Origin: Bdellovibrionota bacterium
GTDB taxonomy: Bacteria > Bdellovibrionota_C > UBA2361 > JBGSMV01
Reading direction: 5' to 3'
Length of the DNA stretch: 64,000 nt
NCBI GenBank assembly: GCA_041739995.1
Contig: JBGSMV010000080.1
Location: 34,738-98,737 of the forward strand
In this document: positions 35,275-55,684 of the stretch, piece after piece
How positions within the stretch are numbered: position 1 is the stretch's first letter
Layout: each line of letters begins with the position of its first letter
The notes under the pieces: generated by a model
Told to the model about the DNA's origin: nothing
Seen by the model: the letters and a program-made list of their open reading frames with translations, nothing else
The model's database searches: none
Made by a program: the position numbers and the translations under genes

Positions 35275-35775
35275 CTAATTCTTTAGTTCTGGATGATCAT
35301 TCTCTGCACGTGAGAGTGAGCTACGGAACATCCAAAGCGCTTTTTCTAGAATCGCGAGGTGAGTAGTCAACATGTCCGAGGTCACTGGATCTACCAATAG
35401 CTCTGCACTCTCTCGTGTCTTGGCGGCATGCTCGCGTACCACCACACAACAAGTAATCAGATCATCAAGCATCGCGTCCGCATCCAATGGCATTCCTCTA
35501 CCGGCAATCGTTGAAAGCTCGTTAAGCGTTTCTAGGCCCACGGGCGCATAAGCGCCAAGGGCTCGAATTCGCTCCCCCACCACATCAACCTCTTCCCACA
35601 ACTCTTTGTAAAAGTTCTCGAACATCGCATGTGCTGCGTGAAACTGCGGACCCTCTACGTTCCAGTGAAATCCCTGGAGTCGAATAACCAGGTTGTACAA
35701 ATGCGCGAGGTGTACGCCGAGCGAATCTGCTAGCTCGCTATGAATCTCTTTCCTGCCTGCAACAATCTTCTGCAT
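35275..35775 (-). CDS. dps: Dps (DNA-binding ferritin-like protein from starved cells)
   Basis: HLYNLVIRLQGFHWNVEGPQFHAAHAMFE...EEVD carries the Dps ferroxidase-centre residues (H..W..G..F...H...E....D/E). 166 aa. Confidence 0.85.
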   Translation of the reverse strand: MQKIVAGRKEIHSELADSLGVHLAHLYNLVIRLQGFHWNVEGPQFHAAHAMFENFYKELWEEVDVVGERIRALGAYAPVGLETLNELSTIAGRGMPLDADAMLDDLITCCVVVREHAAKTRESAELLVDPVTSDMLTTHLAILEKALWMFRSSLSRAENDHPELKN

Positions 35776-35982
35776 GCTTCCTCCTTACCCGCTTTCCACG
35801 AGTCTTAATAATATCTATTCGTGCCAAACCAAGCTTTGAGCTTAGTGGCCAAGAATTAAAATCTTTTCGTCAGGCAACAGACATAAGTAGCCGTACAGTC
35901 GAGGGAGCATTCCTGACCGCAATGCGCTTGGCGAATCTCGTTGAGCCTTCTTCCAATCTCTAATATATCACACTTTTGGCCG

Positions 35983-35998
35983 AAAATCTCGAGATTTT
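35983..35998. promoter_or_regulatory. 16-bp perfect palindrome AAAATCTCGAGATTTT in the divergent dps / 36099-gene promoter region. It is a candidate transcription-factor operator
   Basis: Read directly. It is exactly self-complementary and embedded in AT-rich DNA ~200 bp upstream of dps and ~100 bp upstream of the 36099 ORF. Confidence 0.35.
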
Positions 35999-36098
35999 GT
36001 GATCCGCTCTCAAGGGTCAAGAATGTGCTTTGTTAGTTTGTAATTCTTCTTTACATTGAATTTATCAAAGGTCACACAGCTTAAAGCGAGAAATTTGA

Positions 36099-37433: not shown

Positions 37434-37471
37434 AGATGAGGCTTTTGCGAGTTAACTGACGTCGCGACAGT

Positions 37472-38380
37472 TCAGACTGCCACCGGGTGCCAGGTCGTCT
37501 TTATCTCAAGCATGCTTTCGAGCTCAGTAAGGGAGTCTGCCTGAGCCGACTGGGCAACTACCCGCTTAAGATTCTCACCGCCAAGAGCTCGTACCAAGGC
37601 AATATCATCCCTCTCTTCGCGGGGAAGACAAACCGCACCGATATCCATGTGAGAACCAAGTGGAGTTAATAGCTCATCTTTGAGACCAGAGAGCAGATTA
37701 ACCACTCCCGCAGGAACATCTGAGGAAGCGAGCACTTCAGCGAAGCTAAGTCCCACGGTAGCGCTGCGCTCAGAGAGCAGCACTATCACTGCGTTTCCCG
37801 CGCACACTGCCGGTGCAAGTGCACGTACAAGCCCAAGAAGTGCGGATGATTCAGGGGCTACGACCCCCACCACTCCAATCGGTTCAGCGCAAGAGAAGTT
37901 GAAGAAATTTCCCGCTACAGGATTGATGCTCCCAAGCACTTGCTGGAACTTGTCGGCCCATCCTGCATAGTGGACAATACAATCAATCGCCGCACCTGTC
38001 TCAGCAATCGCCTGCTTCTTCGTCGCCCCGAGCAAGATTAACTCTTTCTCGAACTGGTCTCGACGGCTCTCAAGCATCTCAGCCATTCGATAAATTATCT
38101 GCGCTCGATTGTAGGCCGTGCGGCTCTTCCACACAGCGAACCCTTTATGCGCAGCAACCACCGCGTTCCGAATATCCTTACGGGTTCCTCTACACACATG
38201 CGCGACTAATTTCTGCTTAGATCCGACAACTGGGTACTCGCGTTCTGATTCGGAGCGCACGAATGCCCCGCCAATGTACATCTTGTAAGTCTTTAGGACC
38301 GGGACACGCCCGTTCGCTTCAGCCATAGAGGACTTGTGCTGCACCTTCCCGTTACTCGAAGTATCGCGCTTTGTGCTCAT
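37472..38380 (-). CDS. Aldehyde-dehydrogenase-like protein truncated to the N-terminal/NAD-binding portion. It has no catalytic Cys segment and is 302 aa
   Basis: ALDH-like blocks (YKMYIGGAFV; IVHYAGWADK; PIGVVGVVAP) are present but the catalytic domain is absent. It overlaps the upstream full-length ALDH by 4 nt. Confidence 0.55.
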   Translation of the reverse strand: MSTKRDTSSNGKVQHKSSMAEANGRVPVLKTYKMYIGGAFVRSESEREYPVVGSKQKLVAHVCRGTRKDIRNAVVAAHKGFAVWKSRTAYNRAQIIYRMAEMLESRRDQFEKELILLGATKKQAIAETGAAIDCIVHYAGWADKFQQVLGSINPVAGNFFNFSCAEPIGVVGVVAPESSALLGLVRALAPAVCAGNAVIVLLSERSATVGLSFAEVLASSDVPAGVVNLLSGLKDELLTPLGSHMDIGAVCLPREERDDIALVRALGGENLKRVVAQSAQADSLTELESMLEIKTTWHPVAV

Positions 38381-39879
38381 GAACTTGCTCCAATCGACAG
38401 GTAAGGCAACAGCCCGTGCAGTCCGCCCTCTCTACCAAACCCGCTCTCCTTTACTCCTCCAAACGGAGAAGAAGGGTCAAACTTATTGTAGGTGTTAGCC
38501 CACATCACACCCGCATCAATCTGAGAGGTAACCTTAAAAATCTTCGAGCCCTTGTCGGTCCAAACGCCGCCAGAAAGTCCGTAGCGGGTGTTGTTTGCTT
38601 TCTCAATTCCTTCTTCCGGAGTGCGAAAGGTTTGAACCGTCAATACGGGTCCAAAAATCTCTTCCTGCACAATTCGAAAGGATTGTGAGACCTCGGTGAA
38701 AACTGCAGGCGCGCACCAATATCCTTTACCTGGCAGGACAGCGGAGCTCTGAAAAAGTTCTGCGCCTTCGCTTTTTCCAATCTGAAGATACTCTTGGATT
38801 CGTTCCAGCTGAGATTTCGAATTAATGGCCCCTATGTCCGTGTTTTTGTCGAGCGGATCACCCACTCGCAGCGTGGCGATACGGTCTTTAAGTTTTCGAA
38901 TTACTTGTTTGGCAACTGATTCCTGAACCAGCAAACGGGAACCCGCACAGCAAACGTGTCCTTGGTTAAAGAAAATGCCGTTCACAATTCCTTCAACCGC
39001 CTGGTCGATGGCCGCATCCTCAAATATTAGATGCGCAGCTTTGCCACCCAGCTCAAGCGTTATCTTGGCCGAACGCTGCGCATTCGCGGCCAAAATCAAC
39101 TTCCCGACTTCGGTTGACCCGGTAAACGCAATTTTATCTACGCCCTTAGCTTTCACCAAAGACGCTCCAGTATCACCGCCACCAGTTATAATATTCACCA
39201 CTCCGGGCGGCAGATCAGCTTCTTGAATAATTTGGGCCAGCAGTAAAGCGGTGAGAGGTGTGGTCTCCGCGGGCTTTAGTACTACCGTGTTACCCGTAGC
39301 GAGAGCGGGCGCGATTTTCCAAGCAGCCATCAACAGCGGAAAGTTCCAAGGAATAATTTGAGCAGCCACTCCAAGCGGCTTGGCGTCTCTTCCCTTTAGC
39401 GCGTAGCGCAACTTGTCAGCCCAGCCTGCATAGTAGAAAAAATGTGCGGCGCTTAGTGGAATATCAACACTTTTTGATTCGCGTATCGGCTTGCCGCCGT
39501 TCATGGATTCGACAATCGATAATGTGCGCGCCTGTTCTTGAATGAGTCTGGCAATACGAAACAGGTACTTGCCACGTTCGAGGCCCGATAACTTTGACCA
39601 GTACTTAGTATGTGCGCGTCGCGCGGTGTCGACTGCATGAGCGACATCTTTCTCGCCCGCATCCGGAACGCGCGAAAGAAGTTGCTCATTGGCAGGATTG
39701 ATGACTTGCCGATACTTGCGCGAGATGGGTTTTGTAAATTTTCCACCAATAAACAGATCGTAGGATTTTTCTATTGAAACATGCTCATGCGCTTCAGGTG
39801 CGGGCGCATACTCGAAAGGCAAGTCTTTCCCGGTACGAAAGTCCAAGGGAGCTGGTGAAGTCATGGGGGTCTGCCGCAT
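38377..39879 (-). CDS. NAD(P)-dependent aldehyde dehydrogenase
   Basis: FTGSTEVGKLI, the ELGGK(A) Glu motif and FNQGHVCCAGSRLLVQ with the catalytic Cys. 500 aa. Confidence 0.85.
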   Translation of the reverse strand: MRQTPMTSPAPLDFRTGKDLPFEYAPAPEAHEHVSIEKSYDLFIGGKFTKPISRKYRQVINPANEQLLSRVPDAGEKDVAHAVDTARRAHTKYWSKLSGLERGKYLFRIARLIQEQARTLSIVESMNGGKPIRESKSVDIPLSAAHFFYYAGWADKLRYALKGRDAKPLGVAAQIIPWNFPLLMAAWKIAPALATGNTVVLKPAETTPLTALLLAQIIQEADLPPGVVNIITGGGDTGASLVKAKGVDKIAFTGSTEVGKLILAANAQRSAKITLELGGKAAHLIFEDAAIDQAVEGIVNGIFFNQGHVCCAGSRLLVQESVAKQVIRKLKDRIATLRVGDPLDKNTDIGAINSKSQLERIQEYLQIGKSEGAELFQSSAVLPGKGYWCAPAVFTEVSQSFRIVQEEIFGPVLTVQTFRTPEEGIEKANNTRYGLSGGVWTDKGSKIFKVTSQIDAGVMWANTYNKFDPSSPFGGVKESGFGREGGLHGLLPYLSIGASS

Positions 39880-39906: not shown

Positions 39907-40896
39907 CTAATCTTTACTGAAATACTCCGGATTTTGATATCTTCCGGTTTTTTCTTTCAGCAGTTGCATTTGAATATCATTGGCGAGTCGACTGGCACCA
40001 AAACGGAAGAGATCGGGCGTAAACCAGTCGTTTCCCAAAGTCTCATGCAGCAATACAAGATACTGACTCGCATCCTTTGAGGTCGCTATGCCACCTGCGG
40101 GCTTCATGCCTATGCGTTTTCCGGTTCTATAGTAAAAGTCACGGACAGCTTCCAGCATGACTGCCGTAACCGGGAGAGTTGCCGCGGGCTGTACTTTCCC
40201 GGTGGAAGTCTTAATGAAGTCAGCTCCTGCATACATGGCAATATCGCTGGCGCGCCGCACGGCATCGAGTGAACCGAGTTCTCCTGTTTCCAGAATTACT
40301 TTTAGGTGGGCGCTGCCGCAGGCTTCTTTAATTGTAGCAACTTCATCAGAGATAAACTGGTAGTCACCTTCTAAGAAGCGCCCCCGAGAAATGACCATGT
40401 CTATCTCGTCTGCCCCCTGCTCGACGGCACGGCGCGTCTCCTCTACTCGTTCGCTTAAGGCCGCAAGTCCACTAGGAAACGCAGTGGAGACCGAAGCTAC
40501 TTTTATGTTTGTTCCTCGAAGTGCTGCTTTCGCGATTGCTACAAAAGTCGGATACACACAAACCGCGGCAACATGCGGCAGTTCAGGAAGCTCCTCGATG
40601 TGCTGGCGCGCCTTAGCGCAGAGTTGCCGGACCTTTCCTTCGGTGTCCTTACCCTCCAAAGTGGTAAGGTCCATCATGCCGTAGGCGGTCAGTAAAAGTT
40701 TTACTTTGGCAGTTTTTTTGAGGCTGCGGGAATTTAGGCGCGCGATGCGCTCGTGTAGTGCTACGGTGTCAATGCACGCAGCGGAGGCGCGCTCGTGCGG
40801 CAAGGCCTCAGCGAGACCGAGGCTTCCCACCCCGCTCTGTTTTACGCTGTGCTTTCCGTTAGAAGCGGCTGCGATGCTTGGCGACCCGTCGTTCAT
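39907..40896 (-). CDS. deoC: Deoxyribose-phosphate aldolase (long, DERA-like form)
   Basis: DMVISRG..., KVILETGEL and the Schiff-base lysine region ADFIKTSTGK. It is 329 aa with an N-terminal extension, so the true start may be internal. Confidence 0.75.
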   Translation of the reverse strand: MNDGSPSIAAASNGKHSVKQSGVGSLGLAEALPHERASAACIDTVALHERIARLNSRSLKKTAKVKLLLTAYGMMDLTTLEGKDTEGKVRQLCAKARQHIEELPELPHVAAVCVYPTFVAIAKAALRGTNIKVASVSTAFPSGLAALSERVEETRRAVEQGADEIDMVISRGRFLEGDYQFISDEVATIKEACGSAHLKVILETGELGSLDAVRRASDIAMYAGADFIKTSTGKVQPAATLPVTAVMLEAVRDFYYRTGKRIGMKPAGGIATSKDASQYLVLLHETLGNDWFTPDLFRFGASRLANDIQMQLLKEKTGRYQNPEYFSKD

Positions 40897-41147
40897 GCCT
40901 TGGAGGCTACCCTTTTCCGTAAGGGGTCTAAAGGAATTGCATGCGGCGCTCGGCTATAATTTGAACACATCGATGCTTCTCCACGTCGGAAGCCAGCTAT
41001 GCTTAACTCCATGAAAACACTTACAGGTTGCCATATGCTATCGCGGTGGCACGGGGTCACGAGTGGTGACCTAGTGAGCATCGAAGCCAAGGGATGATTT
41101 TATTAGCACTTAAATTGTAATAAAATCAGTGTAATAGGCGGATATAG

Positions 41148-41555
41148 TTGAGTTTATGTATAGTTTTCTATATAATCTGCTTCATGAATGCTGAAGATTT
41201 AATTTATCCCAGATCGAGATTTCAAGTTTTACGTACGTTGAATTATTCCGAGACGCCAATATCACTGCATGAGATCGTCGATCGCTCTGGGTTAGTAGTC
41301 GGCTCAGTGCAATCTGCATTGAGTTGGTTACTTGAAGCTAAGGTTATTTCAACACAGAAACTCAATAATCGACGATGCTTTCGAATCAAGAATAAATCTG
41401 TGATTGAAATTGTTTCAAAACTACAAAACGTTCTTGCGCCGATGGAACTCCAAGAGCGCGCCAAACAATATCAGAATAGGGCACGGAACTTATTGGAAGA
41501 CATTGAAGATCGAGTAAGGATAATTCACAAAGCTCGCAGTTCAATGAAGTTATGA
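41148..41555 (+). CDS. Small winged-helix DNA-binding protein, a putative antitoxin/regulator partner of the downstream nucleotidyltransferase
   Basis: wHTH-like ISLHEIVDRSGLVVGSVQSALSWLLEAKVIS. 135 aa. It overlaps the downstream gene by 4 nt and has an AT-rich upstream flank. Confidence 0.45.
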   Translation: MSLCIVFYIICFMNAEDLIYPRSRFQVLRTLNYSETPISLHEIVDRSGLVVGSVQSALSWLLEAKVISTQKLNNRRCFRIKNKSVIEIVSKLQNVLAPMELQERAKQYQNRARNLLEDIEDRVRIIHKARSSMKL

Positions 41556-42178
41556 AATTGAGTGAACTGTTTGAAGCAGCAATCAAAGAATTAGTGAAGC
41601 TCAATTGCGCCTTTGCAGTTGGCGGCGGGCTCGCCGCTGACCTGTATAGAACTCAGAGCCGAGTAACAAATGATGCGGATTTCTTATTCCTTACGGAGGG
41701 CCTGGAAGTAGAGACTGGAAGGGGACTACTGGAGAACCTCGACTTGAGCGTTGGAGAAGTGAAATTGCACCAGCTTGTGCGCTCTCCCCAGATGAATAAG
41801 AAATCATCCGAAACCTACATTCTTGTAGGGCGCAAAACTCGAGATGAACCAGGAGTCGATCTTTTACTTCCACCATTCCCGTGGTTTTCTAATGCACTAG
41901 AAAGGGCGAAATCAAACTTAATCGATTTTGGATTCGGAGCTGTGCCTACACTTACCCCCGAAGATGTTATTCTCGCCAAGCTATTTGCCAACCGTCCGAA
42001 AGATGTCGATGACATAATTTCGATATTTGAATCGGGTAAAAGTTTAGATATCGCCTATCTGGCCGCAGAAATGGATCGACTGAAATTTACGTTGCCAAAA
42101 GAAGCTGTAAAGAACGCTCCAATGAGTTTGCAGAGGTTTGTTAAAAGAGCTGTACAAAAGAGAAAATCTTTTCCTTAA
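41552..42178 (+). CDS. Pol-beta-superfamily nucleotidyltransferase (AbiEii/MNT-like) and putative toxin component
   Basis: AFAVGGGLAADLYRTQSRVTNDADFLFL matches the minimal nucleotidyltransferase G[GS]-x9-R-x-T-x-D-x-D motif. 208 aa. Confidence 0.5.
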   Translation: MKLSELFEAAIKELVKLNCAFAVGGGLAADLYRTQSRVTNDADFLFLTEGLEVETGRGLLENLDLSVGEVKLHQLVRSPQMNKKSSETYILVGRKTRDEPGVDLLLPPFPWFSNALERAKSNLIDFGFGAVPTLTPEDVILAKLFANRPKDVDDIISIFESGKSLDIAYLAAEMDRLKFTLPKEAVKNAPMSLQRFVKRAVQKRKSFP

Positions 42179-42192
42179 CTGAGTCTGCCTCT

Positions 42193-42230
42193 GGATTCGC
42201 CTCAGAGATGCTGGGGAAGGGATGCTGGGC
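42193..42230 (+). repeat. Copy 1 of a recurring intergenic ~25-nt motif GGAYTCGYCTCAGAGAKGYTGGGG (...GATGCTGGGGAAGGGATGCTGGGC)
   Basis: Read directly. The same oriented motif recurs at ~44303 and ~49593, all three outside credible CDSs. Confidence 0.55.
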
Positions 42231-42254
42231 AAAGTACTCGCTCCTAGCTACTAA

Positions 42255-44153
42255 TTAAGATGGACGAGCCTTCCCCCGCTTCTCTAGTGCTCGGGCTTTA
42301 AACCCCGCCAGGTCTCTTGGCGAAAGCCCAAGTTCGCTCATTACCCTTCGTGCGCCGAGTTCAGGAGGAATTTTCTCAGATGGAAATCCTGGCAGAATGC
42401 GGTGCGTAGAATCTGCCTCTTGAGAACCATCTGGATACCCCACTAGAAGAACCTCAGGATGCAACGGGTTCACCATGATGCCTGCAGAAGCGAGTGCGTC
42501 TTTAAGTGGATAGTTATGAGTAGCGACGAGCACTCGACACTCATGTGCAGCAAGTACTTCAAGAATGTCCACGCCAATCGGCGCGGAGGCACCTTCCGAG
42601 GTTCCACTACCGATCTCATCGAATGCCACGACACTACAAGAATTGAGTCCCCGATCTAGTTCAGGCCTCAACCACTGAATCTCTTCGCCAAATCTCCCCT
42701 GTGTGGACTCGTGGTTGTTCTGCTTTGGCACCGAAAGAATAAAGCGAGTGGCTGGCGAGAAACTACCTTCGCGCACGAAGCTTCGTCCCCCAACTTGTGC
42801 CAGCAGCCAATTGGAGAATACGTCCTTAAGCCAGCTCGTCTTTCCTCCACTGTTGGGACCCATAATAATTGTTGGCGCGGCATCTACGACTGACGCAGCA
42901 TTGTATACCCACGTCTCCTGCTCAGCATGTAGCGGACTGCCCATATCCTGTGCTGAAAAATATGCGCCGTCAGACGGGACCAATCGCATGAACGAAGAAG
43001 GATGAGTCGATGACTCGGCGAATCGATTGAGCGCGAGAAACTCTCGAATAAGTGCTGTGGCACCCAACAGGGGCGGAACTTGCGTTTGTGCCTTAGCTAC
43101 AAATTCATCCACAAATGCGTACTTGAGCGCCACTCCACCCGCTGCCGTGTAGGCCAGAGCTCCGACTGATGCGATGCCCGCTGCCGTCAACACCCGCAAA
43201 CTTGCGGCAGACATCTCGGTGCTACCAAGAAGCATCACCACCCCCGTCGCCGCCAGAGCGGCTGGAATGTACAGAGGAAAGGAGCGAACCGGATGCAAGG
43301 CGAGTGGATGAAAGTTCATCGAAAGCAGCCCACCCTTGGTATCCGCCGGTTCAAGGCCGCGCGGCGTGAATCGAGCTCCATTGGTGTGAAGACGGGATAG
43401 TTCCGAGTCGGCAAAAGTCCTCAACTGGGTCACAGCCGAACGTAACAGAGGTGACTGCGGCTCAGAAATTTTTTCGAGATCGGATTTAAACCTATCTAAC
43501 GCTCTGCGATTCCGATTGTACCAGGCTCTAATGGTGAGCGGGACGAATCGATCTTGAAGTCTGTTTGATGGTCCTGCAAGAAGGGAAACGGCAGACTCAA
43601 CAATAGAATCGCTGAGCATCGACTCGAATTGAGCTGCGAGCTTCGGATTCTCGCTCAACTCTTTTACTGCCTGCTGTCGCGCGCTGATCTCGCCCGGAGA
43701 GGTGGGAAGTTTAGAGAACGATTGAGTTAGAGCAAGAATATCTAGACCGCTCGCAGGCGAATCTCTGAAGATGCTGGCCACCTCGAAATTCTCAGCAAAA
43801 TGCGTTCGTATATAGGCCTTGTCCTCTGAACAAAGGGCGATGTGACCAATAAGGGACGGCATGCCAAGCGCCTCCCAGGTTTCGGAGGGAATTGAACTAT
43901 GGCCATAGTGGAGCGCCAAAGACGAAATTGAAATCGAGCGCCTCCAGTCTATCAACCGGTCTAAACCGCTTTGGATTTGTCTCGCGTGCTCTGCGACTAA
44001 CTCGTCGCACACCGCCGCGGTGACCAGGACACCCGATTGAAAATTGCTTTCATTCAGTGCGAGTTCCGTCGACGGGGCAGCTCCAGTCGGGACCGCCAGA
44101 AGAGCGGGGGGCGGAACAGGCCGTGGGACTGGTATTTGCGATGGTTCAGGCAT
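42255..44153 (-). CDS. MutS-domain-V (ABC-type ATPase) protein with a long unrelated N-terminal region containing hydrophobic segments. It has no mismatch-binding, clamp or Smr domains
   Basis: Walker A IIMGPNSGGKTSWLK, followed by a signature/Walker B-like VVAFDEIGSGTSEGAS...LVATHNYPL in the MutS C-terminal ATPase order. The N-terminal 400 aa are unassigned and include possible TM helices (AALAATGVVMLLG...). Confidence 0.55.
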   Translation of the reverse strand: MPEPSQIPVPRPVPPPALLAVPTGAAPSTELALNESNFQSGVLVTAAVCDELVAEHARQIQSGLDRLIDWRRSISISSLALHYGHSSIPSETWEALGMPSLIGHIALCSEDKAYIRTHFAENFEVASIFRDSPASGLDILALTQSFSKLPTSPGEISARQQAVKELSENPKLAAQFESMLSDSIVESAVSLLAGPSNRLQDRFVPLTIRAWYNRNRRALDRFKSDLEKISEPQSPLLRSAVTQLRTFADSELSRLHTNGARFTPRGLEPADTKGGLLSMNFHPLALHPVRSFPLYIPAALAATGVVMLLGSTEMSAASLRVLTAAGIASVGALAYTAAGGVALKYAFVDEFVAKAQTQVPPLLGATALIREFLALNRFAESSTHPSSFMRLVPSDGAYFSAQDMGSPLHAEQETWVYNAASVVDAAPTIIMGPNSGGKTSWLKDVFSNWLLAQVGGRSFVREGSFSPATRFILSVPKQNNHESTQGRFGEEIQWLRPELDRGLNSCSVVAFDEIGSGTSEGASAPIGVDILEVLAAHECRVLVATHNYPLKDALASAGIMVNPLHPEVLLVGYPDGSQEADSTHRILPGFPSEKIPPELGARRVMSELGLSPRDLAGFKARALEKRGKARPS

Positions 44154-44270
44154 GCGCCTCCTCTCTCCTCAGAAGTCGCGGCAGCTTATAGAGCGATATT
44201 CAGACAGTCAAACGATGTTATTTCAGCGCCTTATCCCACTACTGTGCAAGTAAGAGCGCCGGAAATGTCC

Positions 44271-44318
44271 CGCTTCAGGACTTCGTCTCAGGACTTCGTC
44301 CAGGACTTCGTCTCAGAG
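44271..44318 (+). repeat. Imperfect tandem repeat of a 12-14-nt unit (TTCGTCYCAGGAC) x3-4 leading into motif copy 2
   Basis: Read directly: ggaccttcgtctca / ggacttcgtcca / ggacttcgtctca, consecutive. Confidence 0.55.
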
Positions 44319-44340
44319 AGGTTGGGGTGCATCTCTGAAG
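44303..44340 (+). repeat. Copy 2 of the recurring motif (GGACTTCGTCTCAGAGAGGTTGGGGTGCATCTCTGA). TCAGAGA ... TCTCTGA can form a 7-bp hairpin
   Basis: Read directly. It lies in the 650-bp AT-rich gap between the divergent 44153 (-) and 44800 (+) genes. Confidence 0.55.
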
Positions 44341-44799
44341 AAATGGAGCGAGCCTCCTTGTAGAGGCTTTTAGGTTGGTAAGGGTCGACAGGCCCCTCCC
44401 CAAGGTCTCTGAGGGAATGGGAAGGATTGATTACGGCATTAAAGAGCATAAACCGCCACTTCAAATAGACATTTTCATCTACACTCTGGTCTATTTAAGT
44501 GCCCGACTTCGCTGTGGCACTAGAAACATCATTAACATATTGTATATAATAAGATTAATTTGGATTTGATTTAATGAGGAATCTCACTTTATATCTCCAT
44601 TTTTGGCTGAATAGCCTCAAATCTAACAAAAAAAGCATTTTACGTACCTAAGAAATTGCTCAGTCGTATAACTATGCCTACGAAGCAAGTGAGGGCGGCT
44701 CTTTCGGCTATTACTTAAACAACTCCGGGCATCAGTGATGGCTGGGCCTTCTCCGCCTCTACTTAAAACTTAGGAATCTTCAAACTTAGGGATCCGAGC

Positions 44800-46263
44800 A
44801 TGACAACTACAATAGCAACCGTCGCTGACATTCATCACGGACCAAAAGCCTCCGGGCATGGGTCCAGTTTCAAAGCAACCGACGAAGCCCTCCCACGAAC
44901 ACGAGCTCTCGTAGCCCATGTAAATGACCTAAAGGCCGTCGATCACACTCTCAATCTCGGAGATCTCATTGAGCACGCTGGTACAGACGCGGCCGCCGAT
45001 CGTAATGCGATGATTGCCGGTCTTAACGTATTGGGCTCTCTAAAAACCCCTTGTCACCACGTAGCGGGCAACCATGATTTGATGAATTTGTCCGAAGCGG
45101 TCGTTGCTGAACTCTTTAAACGCGAAGCTCTTCACTTCTCGACAGACCTCGGGGATCACCATCTGATAGTGCTCCACTCAAGAGCCGGTCAACGCGATGG
45201 CAGTCAGATTTCTGTCGACTCGGCCCAACTCAAGTGGCTTGAACAAGAGCTCATTCGGACTGAGAAACCAACAATCGTCGCAGTTCATCATCCACTCTCC
45301 GATCAAGATCTTTCAAACAATAGATGGTTTGCGGAGCACCCTCAGTGCGCTCTTATTCAGAACCGGGATGAAATAAGAAGTCTCCTTCAGAGACATGGGA
45401 ATGTGATAGCGGTCCTTAACGGACATACCCATTGTAACAGTCTCGAACTCCACGATGGAATTCCTTATGTGACGCAGAACTCCCTGGTTGAAAGAATTGG
45501 TACCCAAGGGTTAGTAGCAAACACCCATGGATTGGTAACTCTGAAAGATGCCCAGTTTGGAATGGAGATCTTTGGAAACGATTCCACCATTTCGAGCCAT
45601 GAAGAGATCGCTAGGCGCCTGGGCGACACCTATGACTCAATCGCCCAAAGCTATAGAGAAAATACTGCTGCGTACGGGCAGGCCGAGTGCAATGAATTTG
45701 ACCGCTTGGCGGCGATGCGTGGAAAGCGGTCCAATTTATGCGTCGTGGATTATGGGTGTGGGCCAGCTCGAGATGCCAATCACTTTATGGGCTGGGGGTA
45801 CAACTATGTGGGAGTAGACGCCTCACGTGAATTTATTCGGCACGGACGCGCAGCATATCCGACAGCACAATTTCATCACGGAGACTTCGCTACACTGCGC
45901 CTAACCCCAAATTCAGCAGATATCGCGTGGCATTCATCAAGCCTACAGCACGTACGGCGCGATACGCTTCCGCAGGTTCTCGAACAAGCATACAACACCC
46001 TTAAGCCGGGAGGTCTTTTCTATGCCCACTACCGCTCAGGGGAGGGAGATAGCATTCAAATATCCGGCGAATATGGTCGCCCGATTGCTCGGCCTATTTC
46101 ACTGTACGGTGAAGCCGAGATGCAGGCAGCGCTCAGACAAGCTGGCTTTGAGATAGTTCGATCGTGGACGTTCGATCATCAATATCCCGGGCTCAAGGGA
46201 ACAACCGTAAAGTACAAATCAAAGGTCATCGCTCGGAAGCCAGAGTCGGGAGCGGCGCTATAG
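44800..46263 (+). CDS. Fusion of a calcineurin-like metallophosphoesterase (N-terminal) and a class I SAM-dependent methyltransferase (C-terminal)
   Basis: VADIHHGP..., GDLIEH and VAGNHD metallophosphoesterase motifs in the first half. VVDYGCGPARDANHF (MTase motif I) and LKPGGLFYAHY (post-II) in the second half. Confidence 0.65.
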   Translation: MTTTIATVADIHHGPKASGHGSSFKATDEALPRTRALVAHVNDLKAVDHTLNLGDLIEHAGTDAAADRNAMIAGLNVLGSLKTPCHHVAGNHDLMNLSEAVVAELFKREALHFSTDLGDHHLIVLHSRAGQRDGSQISVDSAQLKWLEQELIRTEKPTIVAVHHPLSDQDLSNNRWFAEHPQCALIQNRDEIRSLLQRHGNVIAVLNGHTHCNSLELHDGIPYVTQNSLVERIGTQGLVANTHGLVTLKDAQFGMEIFGNDSTISSHEEIARRLGDTYDSIAQSYRENTAAYGQAECNEFDRLAAMRGKRSNLCVVDYGCGPARDANHFMGWGYNYVGVDASREFIRHGRAAYPTAQFHHGDFATLRLTPNSADIAWHSSSLQHVRRDTLPQVLEQAYNTLKPGGLFYAHYRSGEGDSIQISGEYGRPIARPISLYGEAEMQAALRQAGFEIVRSWTFDHQYPGLKGTTVKYKSKVIARKPESGAAL

Positions 46264-46453
46264 GTAGGCTACTAATATTGCTCCATAGCGTTTGGGAGCA
46301 AGATTACTCCAACGCGGTAACGCCTTCAAGAAGCACGAATTGAGCCGCCTATTAGGAGGCGCGTATCTGGGTGTTCGCAAGCATTTGTAAGAAAGTTTTC
46401 GCCAGTACTTTAAGGGGGCAATTCTCCCTGACCCAGTACCAGTGCAGCCGAAA

Positions 46454-48745
46454 TCACTCGCTCCCTAGATCCGCTGATTGCGGCCGCTTGTCGTCAATGC
46501 GGGCCTGATAGATATCAAGCGAAGTCTTCGGCCCTTCATTCGAAATGTGTTTACTCGGCGCTGCCTTAGTGCTGGATGAGCGTGAGCTTCCAACCCCCTT
46601 GCTGGTAGAAGATTCCGCAGCAGGCCCCTGAGACACCGAAGCTTCACCACTTTGAATTGCTCGCACCTTGCGCAGCAAACGTTGCACTCTTGGATCGAAG
46701 TTGCTTACTCCACGACGCTTCTGCAGCACCACCAGCAGATCCGAAAGCTCATTAAGTCGTTCAGCGCTTGATAACGATCTTTCTTCATCAAATTGTTCAA
46801 GTAAAGACTTCATAAGTTTTGCCTTAATTTGCAGATCCGCCACACCGGATATCTCGCGCAGGATATGGCGCGTCACTTCACTCAATAGCTTAAGGCGCAT
46901 AAGGTGCTGCTGACGCTGAGTACTCAAGCGTCGACTTTCCACAGTTCGTACCTCACGCGACACTGGTCTACGATCGCGTTCTACTTTGCGTAACTCCTGT
47001 GGGCGCTCCCCAGCTCTCCGCAGGTGTCGCTCTGCTCGTTCCTTTGAGCGTTCAGTGCGAGGGACCTTGTCGCGAGCGTCTTTCTTATCAAGCTTTTGAA
47101 CGGACGGTTCTCTCTTGGTGGTGACCTTCTGCCTCGCGAGATCACGCTCTTTGAGTGTCGTAGGTGACTGGATGCGCTGCAGTCGCTGTATGGCAGAATA
47201 CTTACGAGCGAAAGTGGTTAGTCCATCGACCTTTCCACGTAGCTCCTGCATCGAAGGAAGTCTCGATACCAGACGTTTACGCTGTGCTGCAATCTGGTCG
47301 GGATTAGCACGAACACCAACTGCCGTGCTCCTTTTGCTTATTAGTTGGGCAGTCGTCGGTTGGTTCCTCCGAAGCTGCAACGATTGGATGGCCGCCATCC
47401 TTGCTTGTGCCTGTTGAGCGCGCAGAGATGCATTTTCAGCTACTATACGAACGCTTGGCACTTCAACCTTTTTATTGCGACTGCGAACGGCCGATGCCAG
47501 CACCTGCTCCGGTCGTTTGTGACTGCTGTGTCTACCTTTGACTTCCTGTCGAGCAATTGTTCGGGAAGCAATTGGACCTCTGCCCTGACTCGTCCTAGAT
47601 AAAGTTGCGGCTACCGAACTACGAAATCTTGGAGCGGCAAGTCTTGGCGCTGAAGTGGGAGGTTCTCGACGTAACGGATTAGAGCGCGTCTCTCGATCAC
47701 GACGGACTTCGGGAGAGTGCTCGCGTTTGGTTGCCTCTTTGGAAATATTTGACCCCTCGCGATCTCTCTGCGCCCTAGCTTCACTACGACCCCTGGTATC
47801 GGCTTGAGCCCTGGATTCGAGCGGTTTAAGTCGCTCATTCTGTTTTGCCAAAATAGCTAGAGAAGTCGCCTTTTCCTTTTCTAGTTGGGGTTCCTTAGGC
47901 GTATCGATCTTTTTGGCTCCCTCTTTGCCTTCACGAGAAATCGCTTTCTCCACCTTCTCCTGGGTGGCCTTCGTAACTACCTGGGCCTCTTTGTAGTGCT
48001 CGTCCTGTCGTCGAGCAGCAATGCGCGCGGATTCTGCTTGCTCAGCTTCACGAACGGTAGTGATGGTTCTTGGCTGCGCTGCCGTTTCAGTCGAGGGACT
48101 CTCTCTTATTGCTTCAGCTAGTTTTTGAAGGGGAGCCTCTCTCACGATCGTAGGCTCGGTGGGCGCTTTGATCAGGCGTGGTTCGGCGGTAACCGTCGTC
48201 TCAACGGTAGTCGCAGGTGCCGCGGGAGTGGTCGGCGGAGTATTTACCCGCTCATCAGCTCTTAATGTAGGGCGAAGATTGTTGGGATCATTCACCGGGG
48301 GAAGTCCAGTGACATCCACGGCAGGAAGTACCGACTGCATCGGGACAATATCGAGAGGGACCGGAGAGTTTTCCTTGAGGACTAAAGCATTTTCCGGAGA
48401 ATTTAACTTTTCAAAGTCTTTCTGTGTAGCCAACGCATCTTTGGACAGTTCGGCGTGCTCTGCGATCTTCTGTTCTAGGCCTTGGGGAGTATCAGCAATC
48501 AGAATATTGTCGAAATTTAAATCCTCTTCCGGGGGAATCTGCGCTGCAATCTTTGCGGCTAGTTCTGGATCTTTCGCCGCATTCTCAGCGAGTTCCCCTA
48601 ATTTGCACCCCGGGCAAGCTCCAGTGCACCCCTCGCATTTATGAACGGGAACATTTGTGGAAGTGTCTGTTGAAGTATGTGTGTGATCGGCACTGGCAAC
48701 AGCATCCGCAACCAGCCTTTCAACATCTACGTTAAATATAGACAC
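46454..48745 (-). CDS. Hypothetical 763-aa very basic, Arg/Lys/Glu-rich low-complexity protein with an N-terminal Cys cluster (CEGCTGACPGC)
   Basis: Single long ORF. Extreme R/K/E/Q bias with RxxR-type periodicity over ~500 aa. No recognised enzymatic domain. Confidence 0.5.
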   Translation of the reverse strand: MSIFNVDVERLVADAVASADHTHTSTDTSTNVPVHKCEGCTGACPGCKLGELAENAAKDPELAAKIAAQIPPEEDLNFDNILIADTPQGLEQKIAEHAELSKDALATQKDFEKLNSPENALVLKENSPVPLDIVPMQSVLPAVDVTGLPPVNDPNNLRPTLRADERVNTPPTTPAAPATTVETTVTAEPRLIKAPTEPTIVREAPLQKLAEAIRESPSTETAAQPRTITTVREAEQAESARIAARRQDEHYKEAQVVTKATQEKVEKAISREGKEGAKKIDTPKEPQLEKEKATSLAILAKQNERLKPLESRAQADTRGRSEARAQRDREGSNISKEATKREHSPEVRRDRETRSNPLRREPPTSAPRLAAPRFRSSVAATLSRTSQGRGPIASRTIARQEVKGRHSSHKRPEQVLASAVRSRNKKVEVPSVRIVAENASLRAQQAQARMAAIQSLQLRRNQPTTAQLISKRSTAVGVRANPDQIAAQRKRLVSRLPSMQELRGKVDGLTTFARKYSAIQRLQRIQSPTTLKERDLARQKVTTKREPSVQKLDKKDARDKVPRTERSKERAERHLRRAGERPQELRKVERDRRPVSREVRTVESRRLSTQRQQHLMRLKLLSEVTRHILREISGVADLQIKAKLMKSLLEQFDEERSLSSAERLNELSDLLVVLQKRRGVSNFDPRVQRLLRKVRAIQSGEASVSQGPAAESSTSKGVGSSRSSSTKAAPSKHISNEGPKTSLDIYQARIDDKRPQSADLGSE

Positions 48746-48753
48746 AAGCTAAA

Positions 48754-49362
48754 CTATGCTGTGCTGCCTGATACGGCACTGCCTGAAACAGCGCCGCCTG
48801 AGCCTGTCAGGATCTGCAGCATTTGTTGAACCCGTGGACTGGCATCGCCTTGCTCCCACTTCCTTCCACCATGATGAACGGTCGCGCTGTTTACTCTGAC
48901 TGCTCCCGGCGTAGCGCCTGCTTCGACTGCTTTCGCCTCCGACTTAGCGGCCAATCTTTTGCCTGCAGGACACTCGTCAATGGTGAAGCGCATAAACAAA
49001 TGCGTATTAACTGAACCGTCCTCCAAACCTTCAAATCCGATAATTTTAATAAAGCCACATTCGACCACGCTCGTGGTAGGCATGTGCTCGTCTTTAACCT
49101 CGGTCAGCCCCTTTAAGGTCGCGGCTAGAAGCGCCTGGGTCGCCGGAGTAACTTCTAAATCCCTCACCCAAAGTCCACCTTTCACATAACGCTCGAGCCC
49201 TGGGGAGCTGGGCACTTGTCGAAACCCGCTGGCTTGAAGCCACTCTTTTGCTGCTGGTTCACTCATAGGGGCGTCAAGTTTTTCCACTGGTGCTCCCGCT
49301 AAACTCTGAAGAACATTAAGTGAGATTCGGCCTGTAGTCGGCTGAGATGGAGATATGCTCAT
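48754..49362 (-). CDS. Hypothetical protein (202 aa), co-oriented and adjacent (8-nt gap) to the basic 763-aa protein
   Basis: ORF with a plausible start. No family recognised. Confidence 0.4.
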   Translation of the reverse strand: MSISPSQPTTGRISLNVLQSLAGAPVEKLDAPMSEPAAKEWLQASGFRQVPSSPGLERYVKGGLWVRDLEVTPATQALLAATLKGLTEVKDEHMPTTSVVECGFIKIIGFEGLEDGSVNTHLFMRFTIDECPAGKRLAAKSEAKAVEAGATPGAVRVNSATVHHGGRKWEQGDASPRVQQMLQILTGSGGAVSGSAVSGSTA

Positions 49363-49592
49363 AAATTCAACATCTTAACAGTTGGCATTACCATTTGCCG
49401 AAGCTATGTATCATTGAACTACATGCTATGGCAAGCAACAACATGAAGGCTAGAAGCTTCTCATGGCACCCCGGCCGAGGCCTCGCGACCCCATGTATTA
49501 GGTCCACGAAATGGCAAGTAAGTCTCGGTGGGCCAAGCCGCCGTACGGGCACTCAGCGCATGGCAGAAGTTGCGGCGACCCCAGCCCTTCCG

Positions 49593-49635
49593 GATTCGTC
49601 TCAGAGATGTTGGGGTATGATGTTGGGGTATGCAG
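49593..49635 (+). repeat. Copy 3 of the recurring motif (GGATTCGTCTCAGAGATGTTGGGGTATGATGTTGGGGTATGCAGG), with an internal duplicated GATGTTGGGGTATG
   Basis: Read directly. It lies in the ~700-bp gap between 49362 and 50063, and only short overlapping ORFs without support cover it. Confidence 0.55.
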
Positions 49636-50062
49636 GAAACTTCTCGGCGATCGATCGCTGACCCTCCAGTGCTAGCGACTCTCACCACTACTGGGACCGA
49701 CTAAGGCAGAAACAGCACATTCGAAACGCTGACACCCAGCTGAGTCGGGTTCCCCATGGTTTCAAATACAGTCACGGTTAACGTAACGGTTCGGGCATCG
49801 GCGCGCGGAGAGACATTAGCCGTTGCCTGTCCGAAGGCATTCTCGGTTTCCGCAAATACGTTCAGCAGCAGATTATTCGGACGCAAAAGCACGGAAAAGG
49901 TAATGCTGTTGCCCTCTGAAAATATCACTTCGCCACTTATCGGCCCGGAGAATGCCAGAGAGAGTCCCTCCCGCAGGGAAGATTCGGCATCCATAAGGCG
50001 CTCCAAGGTTCCTTCCGCTCCAGAGTTCCTTCAAACCTTTGGTAACGACCCGACACTGGTGA

Positions 50063-51301
50063 TTAGCCAGCCACCTCCGGCACTTCAAGCTTCCACTCCG
50101 GTAACCAACGCTCGCGAAAATCTCGGATGACGTTCATGAAGTTAATGAAGGCCTCATACGGGCTCTCGTATGGACTAAAGTAGGCGTGCACGTCTCCGTC
50201 AGCAAACCACTTAGTGCACATGTAATAGAAGTGATCCGACGTAAGAAGCTTGCGCCATGTATCGAGCACCAAAGGATCAACCGCGTCGCCAAACTTATCT
50301 TTGAGCCTCTGCCCAATCTCATATACAAGATTCAGCGCACTGTTTTGCATGCGGTTTCCACGCCACGCCGTAAGATCGCGTTCAACATCAGCCCACGAAG
50401 TGAGTCGATGAAATGGCAGCTCCGCTCTGGAAGGATAACGATCAATAACCTGTGATGGCGTGGCAAAATTCCAGTCGGGTTTACGAAGAATCATCTCAGG
50501 AAGATGTTTTAAGAACTCGAAAATCCCAGTGTCAGCCCACTGATGCTCTCCAAAGGTTTCATAATCCATGAAGAGGTTCACCACATCGCCGCCGCCACTT
50601 ACCTCATGCACCCAGCCCGCAAACTTTTCTGCAGTGAGCGGCCATTCGGGCCAGCCGCGATTCGAGAAACGAAAGGCGATGTCGTCAGAAAGGCGGTAAT
50701 TCTTCAGCAGAAGTTTAACCTCTCGGCCTGAAGTAAGCTGCCTTGGCACCGAATACACGAAGTTCGGAGTGCGCCACCCAAGAACGTCGTCCGCACCTTC
50801 TGCAATCACTGCATCAAACCCAAGCTCACTGACCAACTGGCCAACTTCATCTGAATAGATAAGTTCAGTATTTCTAAAAACTCTCGGCGTTTGTCCAAAT
50901 AGCTCTTTTACCAACTCGCGGTGCTTTGCCACCTGCTCGCGAAACTCATCAGCGTGATAGACCGCAGCGAGTGAGTGGTAATAGGTCTCGTTGACGAATT
51001 CCACCGCACCGGTTTCGGCAAGTTTCTCAAAACTTCGCAAAGTCTCCGGTGAATACAGCTTCATCTGCTCGATTGCGGTGCCAGTGATCGAGTAAGCAAT
51101 TCGAAACGCTCCTTGGTGGCGCTTCACCAGCTCAAGCATAGTGGCATTAGTGGGAAGATAGCACTTCTCGGCTACCTTCTTCAGCACAGTGCCGTTCTTC
51201 TCATCATCAAAGTAAATGTGATCGTGGTTCACCTGGAAGAACGAGTAGCGCTTTATGCGAAACGGTTGGTGTACCTGAAAATAGAAGCATACTGATGGCA
51301 T
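50063..51301 (-). CDS. Glycoside hydrolase family 57 protein (alpha-glucan branching / amylopullulanase-type)
   Basis: N-terminal CFYFQVHQPFRIKRY is the hallmark GH57 start. 412 aa. Confidence 0.8.
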   Translation of the reverse strand: MPSVCFYFQVHQPFRIKRYSFFQVNHDHIYFDDEKNGTVLKKVAEKCYLPTNATMLELVKRHQGAFRIAYSITGTAIEQMKLYSPETLRSFEKLAETGAVEFVNETYYHSLAAVYHADEFREQVAKHRELVKELFGQTPRVFRNTELIYSDEVGQLVSELGFDAVIAEGADDVLGWRTPNFVYSVPRQLTSGREVKLLLKNYRLSDDIAFRFSNRGWPEWPLTAEKFAGWVHEVSGGGDVVNLFMDYETFGEHQWADTGIFEFLKHLPEMILRKPDWNFATPSQVIDRYPSRAELPFHRLTSWADVERDLTAWRGNRMQNSALNLVYEIGQRLKDKFGDAVDPLVLDTWRKLLTSDHFYYMCTKWFADGDVHAYFSPYESPYEAFINFMNVIRDFRERWLPEWKLEVPEVAG

Positions 51302-53053: not shown

Positions 53054-54103
53054 ATGACAGACGACTCAAAGACCTCTGACATCAAGGTGGCTCTTCAAGA
53101 CGGAGCACCATCAGGAAGAATCCTGGTGGGAGATGTCGGAGGAACTAAGACGCAGTTTGGGCTCTACGAGACCAGCGGGGGCCAGCTGGTGCGTACTCAC
53201 GTGCAGCGCTACCAGAGCGACTCGGCGCCAACGTTCCAGGAACTGGCGAAACAATTTCTCAAAGAGGCCGGGGCTAACGGGGCGGAAGCGGCCTGTTTTG
53301 GAGTTCCGGGTCCAGTCAACAAGGGTGTCGTCAAGGCCACCAATCTTCCTTGGCTCTTGTCTGAACAAGAACTCAAACGCGACTTGAACATTTCAAAGGT
53401 TCGCCTAGTTAATGATCTGGTTGCCTACACCGCTGCCATTCCGTTTTTTAGCCGTGCTGATTTGATGGTGCTGCATGAGGGTTCTGCTGAACGCAACAAG
53501 AGTCTCGCCTGCGTACTGGCACCAGGAACGGGTTTGGGCATGGCATTTCTCCATATCTTTAATGGCGTTCCTCATCCGCTACCCTCCGAAGGAGGACATG
53601 CCAACTTTGCACCGAACTCGGATCTGGAAATTGAGTTACTCAAGTATCTAAAACGCGAGTTTCCCACTTCGGTAAGTTGTGAGCGCTTGCTGTGTGGCCC
53701 AGGTCTCTACAACATTTACCGCTTTCTAACCGAGACCGGTGTCGAGAAGGAATCGCCGACAGTACATGAGCAGTTATCGAACGGAAATCGCGCTCGAGTC
53801 ATTTCGCAGATGGCCCAAGAACAAGCAGATCCTGCCTGCGAGAGAGCGCTAGACTTGTTCGTTTCTATTCTAGGTGGTCACGCCAGCAATCTAGTTCTGA
53901 CTTTTCTTGCCACCGGTGGCGTGTATCTTGGAGGTGGAATTCCGCCAAAGATAGCCAAGAAACTTTCAGACGGATCTTTTATGCGTGCGTTTTTAGAGAA
54001 GCAACGCTTGAAAGAAGTAGTGGAACAGACTCCGGTGTATGTCATCAAGGATGATAAGGCAGCATTGTTGGGGGCGGCGGTGCTGGCGCAAAGAATGCGA
54101 TAG
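53054..54103 (+). CDS. glk: Glucokinase (Glk family)
   Basis: ILVGDVGGTKTQFGLYE (glk N-terminal ATP motif) and the overall 349-aa Glk architecture. Confidence 0.75.
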   Translation: MTDDSKTSDIKVALQDGAPSGRILVGDVGGTKTQFGLYETSGGQLVRTHVQRYQSDSAPTFQELAKQFLKEAGANGAEAACFGVPGPVNKGVVKATNLPWLLSEQELKRDLNISKVRLVNDLVAYTAAIPFFSRADLMVLHEGSAERNKSLACVLAPGTGLGMAFLHIFNGVPHPLPSEGGHANFAPNSDLEIELLKYLKREFPTSVSCERLLCGPGLYNIYRFLTETGVEKESPTVHEQLSNGNRARVISQMAQEQADPACERALDLFVSILGGHASNLVLTFLATGGVYLGGGIPPKIAKKLSDGSFMRAFLEKQRLKEVVEQTPVYVIKDDKAALLGAAVLAQRMR

Positions 54104-54202
54104 AACAATGCTTGACTGTGAGCGGATCAACTGTCGCAAAGTGGGGAGAGAGACGAAACGTCCGAGCCCGAAGCTTTATTCACTATGGCAAACGCGAGTT
54201 CT

Positions 54203-55426
54203 TTATTTGAACGGCCCAATTCGCGTTAATGCCTGATCGAAGAACGTCACTTGGTCGGGGGTCGGACTCTCTATCGACAGCTGTTCAGCCCCTACGCACA
54301 ACCGATCGAGCGGGAGTTCCCGCACTAGCAGCCATCGCTTGAGTGCACCCACGGATTGCTCCTCTCGGCTAAATGCTAAAAATGTTACGAATCCAGTAGT
54401 ATCGAACGCGCCTGAACCGACGATGGCCGCTCCACTTTCAGGACTGACCTCTCGCAACTGTGCGATTATTGGGTCGGCTCCAAGTACTATGATCTGCGAA
54501 AGCCTTGACGCCGCTTCCCCCAACTGCTGATCAGCGTCAACTATCGCACCTCTAGGGGTCTGCCCACGCTCTGCCGCTTGAAGATCTGAGTCGAGCATCT
54601 TGATCAAAAGACTCGTGCTGCGAAAACGATTGGAGGCGATCTCTTCCCCCCATAATTTCGTTCCGTAAATTGAAACTGCTTCCCTTAAGAGAATTAGCTG
54701 TCCCACGCTCTCGCGTATCGCTGAGCTCCCATCTCCGACAGAGTTCGATTCATGCCCATCCGCAAGCACCGCAAGCCTATCCCGCCCCGTTACAGAGTAG
54801 ACGTCCCGGCTTGAATTCCCTAACCGCTCATCTCGGCGAAACCACTCGCTCAGTTCGCGCGCTGCAGACAGTTTTAACTCCGATGCGACTTCAGGATTTA
54901 AACTTGCTTCCTCGAGACTAACTCTACCGGCAACCCGGAGGGCGAAGTCAGACATGGCGCGGATGGATATTCTCTCGTTCGCAGGTGCTCGCGTTCCTAG
55001 ATCATTCAAGTAGGCACCCAGAGTGGCAAACTCGCCAACTACGGGATCGTTGACCACAGCCGTAAGGGCAATATCTCGCCGCTGATCATTGTTGGCATCT
55101 ATGGCCGCTCTCTCGTGGATAACCACCGATACGTTTTCAGGAGGTAACCCGCGCAACAGTTGCGTAAATTGATCTTCTGAGAGTACTCCAGGGTCGGAGG
55201 GTTGCTGTGTTGAGGTCACGGCGCTCTCCGTCTCAGTAGCAGAATCGTCCACTGGCGCCGAAGTGTTATCCGAAATACGCACTTCTCGACTGTCTGCAGA
55301 ATCAGAAATACCAGGCGTACTCGAACGCGAACTTGCACAACCAGCAAGCGCAAGCATGGTCGCTCCGGAGATGGCGCCGATTGAAGCACTTCGTGTAAGT
55401 GACGGCGGTATGAGTTTATGAAACAT
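54203..55426 (-). CDS. Hypothetical lipoprotein
   Basis: Lipobox signal ...MLALAGC at the N-terminus followed by a Ser/Thr/Asp-rich linker. 407 aa. Confidence 0.5.
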   Translation of the reverse strand: MFHKLIPPSLTRSASIGAISGATMLALAGCASSRSSTPGISDSADSREVRISDNTSAPVDDSATETESAVTSTQQPSDPGVLSEDQFTQLLRGLPPENVSVVIHERAAIDANNDQRRDIALTAVVNDPVVGEFATLGAYLNDLGTRAPANERISIRAMSDFALRVAGRVSLEEASLNPEVASELKLSAARELSEWFRRDERLGNSSRDVYSVTGRDRLAVLADGHESNSVGDGSSAIRESVGQLILLREAVSIYGTKLWGEEIASNRFRSTSLLIKMLDSDLQAAERGQTPRGAIVDADQQLGEAASRLSQIIVLGADPIIAQLREVSPESGAAIVGSGAFDTTGFVTFLAFSREEQSVGALKRWLLVRELPLDRLCVGAEQLSIESPTPDQVTFFDQALTRIGPFK

Positions 55427-55684
55427 GAGAGCAGCACCTCCAGCAAGAATTGAAGGGACACTATAAGTAGATCTGAATTCCTAATCAAAACGCCGTATTA
55501 TAAATTTGACTACCGGGGCCTAACCTCGCATTGTTTGGGGTCTTCGGGGACTTAGGCCTCCTGGAAATAACCTTCGTGGCGTCCAGGGCGGCGTAGAGAG
55601 AACCTTCGACACTGACGACGCGCTTCTAAAACGGCGCTTTTCGCTGAAGCGGCGTCTTCAGATTTACTTTAGAGGAACAATAAA

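Follow-up and report, generated by a model that had tools for sequence, protein, structure and literature searches.

Three co-oriented copies of a short repeat in an inserted island of a Bdellovibrionota bacterium as candidate att-like junction sequences

A contig of an uncultured Bdellovibrionota bacterium (GenBank assembly GCA_041739995.1, contig JBGSMV010000080.1) raises the question of what a short intergenic repeat is doing among a set of accessory-looking genes. In the 64,000 nucleotides of this contig that we have analyzed, positions 34,738 to 98,737 of the forward strand and referred to here as the window, a preliminary description had reported a motif of about 25 nt that recurs three times in one orientation, and had offered a shared promoter or operator, a small REP/MITE-like element (repetitive extragenic palindromic sequence or miniature inverted-repeat transposable element) and recombination sites bounding inserted cassettes as explanations. 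We find that the three copies are restricted to an inserted island and that two of them coincide with compositional or phyletic seams within it. Tentatively, we read them as attachment (att)-like junction repeats of a recombinase-less mosaic island built by accretion, with a recombinase acting in trans; this leads the four readings of the mechanism that are weighed below, without being probable in itself.

A scan of the 64 kb with the degenerate 24-mer GGAYTCGYCTCAGAGAKGYTGGGG yielded three matches, at 42193, 44304 and 49592, all on the + strand, and as none of 100 dinucleotide-preserving shuffles of the sequence contained a match, chance similarity was rejected. The three copies, abbreviated c1, c2 and c3, measure some 24-40 bases each. 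The cores of c1 and c3 fit the 24-mer without a mismatch, and the two mismatches of c2 are due to a single extra C (GGACTTCG vs GGATTCG). A profile built from the three copies with nhmmer recovered all of them at E values of 5e-6 to 5e-5 and in addition picked up an inverted partial copy at 44398-44414 and a tandem partial copy at 44278. Neither the 24-mer scan nor the profile found a further copy in the 54.7 kb outside the island. Each copy carries its own elaboration: GATGCTGGG is present twice in c1 (42207 and 42221), c2 contains 3.3 copies of the 13-nt unit TCAGGACTTCGTC (44275-44316, identified with TRF) along with the arms TCAGAGA (44313-44319) and TCTCTGA (44332-44338), and c3 contains 2.1 copies of the 13-nt unit GATGTTGGGGTAT (49606-49632, TRF). 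The preliminary description was therefore accurate in the number and common orientation of the copies, in the duplicated units that it had seen in c1 and c3, and in the three tandem units and hairpin arms of c2.

The outer pair, c1 and c3, is the most alike and encloses 7.4 kb. In local alignment the two share a stretch of 40 nt (42190-42229 and 49589-49627) with 34 of 40 positions alike and a common layout of an A-part, a B-part and a second B-part, in which GATGYTGGG is duplicated; the similarity of c2 to c3 spans 30 nt. A quasi-palindrome, TCTC-A-GAGA (TCTCAGAGA), lies in the core of all three copies. The longest exact run common to the copies is at most 13 nt, so that a repeat-induced artefact of assembly is unlikely. 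None of the reading frames is both open and conserved in all three copies, and the two mechanically predicted open reading frames (ORFs) that overlap copies, 44037-44363 at c2 and 49395-49661 at c3, have no family match. A protein-coding origin of the motif was rejected on these grounds, and the copies do lie outside credible coding sequences, as had been proposed.

The island itself is evidenced by synteny. The GH57 glycoside hydrolase at 50063-51301 (minus strand) is 84% identical in amino acid sequence to relatives on two Logan contigs, L009 and L010, on which glucokinase, a GT4 glycosyltransferase, GH57, the DeoC aldolase and two aldehyde dehydrogenases follow each other in unbroken order, with 9 nt from the GH57 stop to the DeoC start. 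The window has the identical gene set and order on its minus strand, with approximately 9.3 kb extra. BLASTN homology ends at 40754 on the DeoC side and restarts at 50091 on the GH57 side, and the intervening segment is absent between GH57 and DeoC from L009, L010 and a third contig, L012. As this segment lacks a counterpart in syntenic relatives, we conclude that the copies sit in an inserted island. The preliminary description had taken the flanked genes for accessory ones and had proposed a comparison with related genomes; in these three relatives the block that carries the genes is indeed missing. All three copies fall within the island's 1.57 kb of non-coding DNA, out of 8.57 kb in the window, an outcome with a chance of ~0.006. 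Relatives with a GH57 identity above 89% were not present in the collections searched; those matches of the GH57 protein that carry a name indicate metagenome-assembled genomes of Bdellovibrionota/Oligoflexia type. The junction downstream of GH57 is variable in the lineage, since other relatives carry a Na+/H+ exchanger (L014) or a fatty-acid desaturase (L015-L019) at this place. The DeoC ORF of the window (39907-40896, minus strand) encodes 329 residues vs 295 in relatives (L009, 11252-12139), and its first ~34 codons derive from island-side DNA. The insertion thus replaced the tight GH57-DeoC junction, and with it DeoC may have acquired another start codon and other signals upstream. Over 1-64000 the cumulative GC skew declines monotonically and is flat only across the island (39-49 kb), as would fit an insertion of foreign DNA into one arm of a replichore.

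Within the island, composition and phyletic distribution support a placement of the copies at seams between units with separate histories. The winged-helix (wHTH) gene and the DUF6036 nucleotidyltransferase gene to the left of c1 have GC contents of 38% and 44% (37% and 41% at third codon positions, GC3), compared to 51.7 +/- 1.5% (GC3 52 +/- 3%) in 41 host genes. At c1 the composition, in GC as in GC3, jumps from these 38-44% to that of the MutS-like gene, which with a GC content of 54% is host-like. For the metallophosphoesterase-methyltransferase (MPE-MTase) fusion, a homolog with 65% amino acid identity is found in GCA_030431715.1; the coding sequence alone is common, and its neighbours differ. 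The MutS-like family is small, with nine representatives at E <= 1e-30 among 1.84 billion in a full HMMER search, and in a word-indexed search of 5.8 billion proteins the MutS-like protein matched itself only. Its best relative, with 46% identity, lies in an unrelated neighbourhood on contig L021, from a sample shared with L009. Because of the GC break, and because the MPE-MTase and MutS-like genes occur apart elsewhere, the units on either side of c1 and c2 differ in history.

It is this position at seams that favors the recombination option, and of the readings weighed the junction repeat accommodates the largest number of observations. The island would have been assembled by successive site-specific insertions at or next to one short sequence, and would have lost its own recombinase or never had one. 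Copies c1 and c3 would represent the attL/attR-like ends of a 7.4-kb block (42193-49632), c2 would be an internal, more diverged site parting the MutS-like unit from the unit of the MPE-MTase and the 202-aa and 763-aa proteins, and the wHTH-nucleotidyltransferase pair would have joined beside c1. We infer recognition of the motif by a recombinase; the local duplications of half-sites and the hairpin partners would be by-products of this site or accessory to it. The products of such recombination must be co-oriented, as all three copies are; they are direct repeats on the + strand, within DNA that is absent from the empty locus of relatives. Further movement would require a recombinase in trans, as it does for cis-mobilizable elements (CIMEs), and tandem accretion that leaves recombinase-less, att-flanked elements is a documented route (PMC5704250). 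Of the three options offered at the outset, the recombination junction thus gains from seams and synteny, and a genome-wide REP/MITE repeat loses with zero copies in 54.7 kb. The shared promoter or operator is poorly supported, given the position of c1 between convergent stop codons, the lack of overlap between any copy and a sigma-70-like hexamer pair, and the absence of a copy upstream of the island's own wHTH operon. The placement of the copies relative to genes is inconsistent with a promoter, and we count this for the junction repeats.

Several observations weigh against att-like junction repeats. No recombinase domain, be it of an integrase, a transposase or a resolvase, is encoded in any island ORF or in 20 neighbouring ORFs (22353-39879 and 53054-63993). 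The repeats do not mark the edges of the insertion; from c1 to the DeoC-side edge there are ~1.4 kb, and from c3 to the GH57-side edge ~0.45 kb. The junction of the MPE-MTase and 763-aa genes (46263-46454) is without a copy, and an attB or related site was not found in GTDB, the JGI metagenomes or IMG/VR. Finally, tandem duplications of half-sites and custom inverted partners are atypical of att cores. The features of the locus are collected in Table 1.

Table 1. Features of the island and of the motif copies, in window coordinates
Feature	Position	Strand	Remarks
Inserted island, ~9.3 kb	40755..50090		no counterpart in relatives with contiguous GT-GH57-DeoC-Aldedh-Aldedh
Winged-helix protein (135 aa, 41148-41555) and DUF6036 nucleotidyltransferase (208 aa)	41148..42178	+	left of c1
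Copy 1 (c1)	42190..42229	+	core 42193-42216, second GATGCTGGG 42221-42229
MutS-domain-V-only ATPase (632 aa)	42255..44153	-	between c1 and c2; rare family
Inverted partner of c1	42269..42285	+	CCTTCCCCCGCTTCTCT; pairs with 42204-42220, 15/17, 48-nt loop
Copy 2 (c2)	44275..44327	+	three tandem 12-13-nt units GGACTTCGTC(T)CA, the last running into core 44304-44327
Inverted partner of c2	44398..44413	+	CCCCAAGGTCTCTGAG; pairs with 44312-44327, 14/16, 70-nt branched loop
MPE-MTase fusion (487 aa)	44800..46263	+	first gene between c2 and c3
202-aa protein and 763-aa basic, low-complexity protein	46454..49362	-	between c2 and c3; no family match
Copy 3 (c3)	49589..49632	+	core 49592-49615 and tandem GATGTTGGGGTAT x 2.1; without inverted partner
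Possible 101-aa ORF	49701..50006	-	

We further searched for the motif beyond the window. The exact 20-mer pattern TCGYCTCAGAGAKGYTGGGG has four matches in GTDB representative genomes and four in JGI metagenomes, and none in IMG/VR. All eight are single, lie within coding DNA and encode (V/A)SE(M/R)LG; two of them (L005, L006) are from the box II region of tyrosine recombinases, and another two (L004, L008) from the same acyl-CoA dehydrogenase-like gene. Judged by these contexts they are coincidences of codon usage and no homologs of the motif. As two of the eight matches encode box II, VSE(R/M)LGH, we considered the possibility that the motif is a remnant of a tyrosine recombinase gene. It was rejected because the sequence upstream is unrelated, LG is not followed by the H, and no Pfam match at E <= 10 was obtained with peptides translated across the motif. 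No related copy and no single-copy empty site emerged when GTDB genomes, JGI metagenomes and IMG/VR were scanned for the exact pattern, and the relatives' loci L009-L021 contain no motif within 6-7 mismatches. By this reckoning the motif is specific to the lineage or to the island, as neither collections nor relatives' loci hold a related copy.

None of the three copies has significant similarity to the flanks of the MutS-like homolog on L021. Just downstream of this homolog (7880-7930) a 16-mer, TCCATTATCATTGGGG, is repeated 2.5 times in tandem; it resembles GATGYTGGGG in style in that it ends in a G-run, is without significant similarity to it, and has the opposite orientation relative to the gene. 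Another contig, L022 (228-610), retains an 88-aa remnant of a MutS-like C-terminus that is 58% identical to the window protein and stands beside a small upstream ORF. The remnant is followed by a near-perfect palindrome of 76 nt (525-600) that includes no motif copy, and none was seen by eye in this truncated locus.

With the inverted partners listed in Table 1, c1 and c2 can form imperfect hairpins of 82 and 102 nt, respectively, in which the 3' half to two-thirds of the motif constitutes the 5' arm. The stems have the form CTCAGAGA..TTGGGG / CCCCAA..TCTCTGAG. Both are interrupted by an internal loop where the motif has its K, and the Y position covaries, as C-G in c1 and T-A in c2, a single pair from two sequences. 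By our own estimate the chance of such an inverted match within 200 nt is of order 1e-5. The fold of c2 on the minus strand has a z of -3.9 and was matched by none of 200 shuffles, that of c1 has a z of about -2, and c3 has no inverted partner within +/-600 nt and no significant fold (z about 0). Conservation of the motif peaks outside the stems, in GGAYTCG, and the sequence 3' of the motif is weakly alike in c1 and c2 (z = 2.9) and unrelated in c3. The preliminary description has to be corrected in one point, in that the hairpin partner of c1 falls within the last 12 codons of the MutS-like gene, among those for LEKRGKA. As the C-terminal tail of this protein is variable and basic among homologs, the partner is probably native coding sequence. 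The hairpin encloses the stop codon of the gene. The partner of c2, seen on the minus strand, precedes the MutS-like start codon (44153) and is probably part of the 5' leader of that gene.

These structures bring a non-autonomous repeat of the REP/REPIN or MITE type into consideration, with c1 and c2 as doublets, c3 as a decayed singlet, and a transposase elsewhere in the genome. Every copy is short and intergenic, the inverted partners of c1 and c2 at a distance of 48-70 nt are far beyond chance, and the covarying position and the weak likeness of the regions downstream of both copies fit as well. The paper that defined REPINs reportedly describes REP doublets that form hairpins, with singlets as decay products. 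Unlike elements mobilized by REP-associated tyrosine transposases (RAYTs), however, the motif occurs only three times in the 64 kb, each time within the one island (P about 0.006). The partner arms repeat only its 3' part, fit each copy's own flanks and define no common unit, the spacers are not conserved, and the partner of c1 belongs to the MutS-like coding sequence. Neither a RAYT nor a Y1 transposase is among the scanned ORFs, and apart from the coding coincidences described above, exact-pattern copies are missing from GTDB and the JGI metagenomes, although the scan may not have covered a contig with the gene cluster of a close relative that is recorded from JGI/IMG. We consider this origin unlikely, and hold the same opinion, to the same degree, of an operator bound by a regulator, possibly the island's wHTH protein, that co-regulates or silences the island units. 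The latter would explain the quasi-palindrome in every copy and the local repetition of half-sites at a spacing of 13-14 nt, and it finds a candidate regulator in the wHTH protein with its weak matches to Csa3/ArsR types. Two of the copies are suitably placed: c2 is in the 647-nt divergent region of the MutS-like and MPE-MTase genes, and c3, flanked by the stop codon of the 101-aa ORF on the minus strand (49701) and the start codon of the 202-aa gene (49362), precedes the 202-aa/763-aa operon by 230 nt. A constant promoter-like position upstream of transcription units was nevertheless not observed. Copy c1 occupies the 77-nt gap between the convergent DUF6036 nucleotidyltransferase and MutS-like genes, where no promoter is expected; it begins 15 nt past the stop codon of the former and ends 26 nt short of that of the latter. 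In addition, a sigma-70-like hexamer pair is not predicted to overlap any copy, the wHTH operon is without a copy upstream, and the copies are co-oriented although the neighbouring genes are not.

Somewhat less likely still is an RNA element on the minus strand, a signal for processing, stability or termination in transcripts reading through the island in the direction of the host operon; the 3' arm of its protective or regulatory hairpins would be the reverse complement of the motif. Relative to four of the seven island genes, as to the host GT-GH57...DeoC-Aldedh operon, the copies are in sense orientation, the hairpin of c1 encloses a stop codon, and c2 forms its branched structure (z = -3.9) upstream of the MutS-like start, probably in the leader. 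Against it, c3 is without significant structure, the motif is conserved most outside the stems, and the single covarying pair comes from two sequences. Rfam 15 has no match at the gathering score in the whole window and none at E <= 5 in 40500-50500, U-tract terminators are absent at the copies, and the window contains no tRNA genes. The hairpins could also belong to a folded recombination site of a new kind. The island would then be an integron-like array without integrase, its recombinase encoded elsewhere in the genome, and the motif a functional analogue of attC/CALIN with an unrelated signature and with multi-gene cassettes on two strands, a combination that we judge to be quite improbable.

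A CALIN is a cluster of attC sites lacking an integrase, and an attC site is an imperfect palindrome of 57-141 nt with the ends RYYYAAC (R'') and GTTRRRY (R'). As in such clusters, co-oriented sites part gene units that include a toxin-antitoxin-like pair, no integrase is nearby, and two of the sites fold into imperfect hairpins of 82-102 nt that have an internal loop and vary in their terminal part. In contrast, the conserved box of the present motif reaches outside the stem, the third site has no hairpin, and the units are 2.1 and 5.3 kb in size, with genes on both strands. The regular expression RYYYAAC-N40-130-GTTRRRY has no match in 40600-50200 on either strand, and attC sites proper were rejected for want of R boxes. 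Recombinase-less modules are also known from integrative mobile elements exploiting Xer (IMEXs) and from pdif modules, which employ ~28-bp sites used by host recombinases, and pdif sites alternate in orientation. The island likewise consists of recombinase-less modules bounded by short sites, but the motif lacks the two-arm palindrome of dif and its copies never alternate. A dif/Xer site was rejected, as there is no two-arm layout and the monotonic cumulative GC skew has no inflection; by this skew the window is not a replication terminus. In CIMEs and other products of tandem accretion, an acquired block is bounded and subdivided by direct repeats that share one orientation and are tens of bases long, and its units have separate histories and contain no recombination genes (PMC5704250); the island agrees in all these respects. 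It differs in that the repeat is not supplied by the 3' end of a target gene, tRNA or other, that the repeats are not outermost and have no known cognate integrase, and that half-sites are duplicated and hairpin partners present.

Among the island genes, the wHTH and DUF6036 reading frames overlap by stop and start (ATGA), and the pair, a strong compositional outlier, looks like a recently acquired toxin-antitoxin or abortive infection (Abi)-like module. It has weak PADLOC matches (PDC-M05A, Csa3 wHTH), and a tblastn search of the nucleotidyltransferase against plasmids gave no match. The 763-aa ORF (46454-48745, minus strand) encodes a very basic putative protein rich in R, K, E, S and T with a Cys-rich N-terminal patch, CEGCTGACPGC, for which Pfam, NCBIfam, PADLOC and PHROGs contain nothing, and it imposes on its region a strong AT skew of down to -0.39. 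At 49644-49661, 12 nt past the repeats of c3, lies a GC-rich palindrome, TCGGCGATCGATCGCTGA, with a GCGATCG core like that of the highly iterated palindrome HIP1; the exact HIP1 octamer GCGATCGC occurs twice in the window vs 1.8 expected, so that there is no enrichment. Outside the island, overlapping tandem repeats with a period of 12 nt (10 copies, 61773-61970) in the + strand ORF 60767-62515, which has a weak VWA match, and four 15-nt repeats of GCACCACAGTCCGRC (56261-56320) in the + strand ORF 55685-57463 probably encode repetitive peptide tracts.

The motif is specific to the lineage and belongs to a known general type of short repeat, and under either class of reading, junction or signal, the result is confined to this lineage of uncultured, predatory-bacteria-like organisms, in which the interrupted locus is a conserved sugar-metabolism operon. 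Should it be an operator or an RNA signal, it would define a small island-specific regulon. If the copies are indeed junction repeats, an accessory island was built piecewise at a short reusable site inside this operon, from a toxin-antitoxin-like pair, an orphan MutS-type ATPase, a phosphoesterase-methyltransferase and two unassigned proteins, and the motif would then provide a handle for finding further islands in the genome as well as the recombinase that acts on them in trans.

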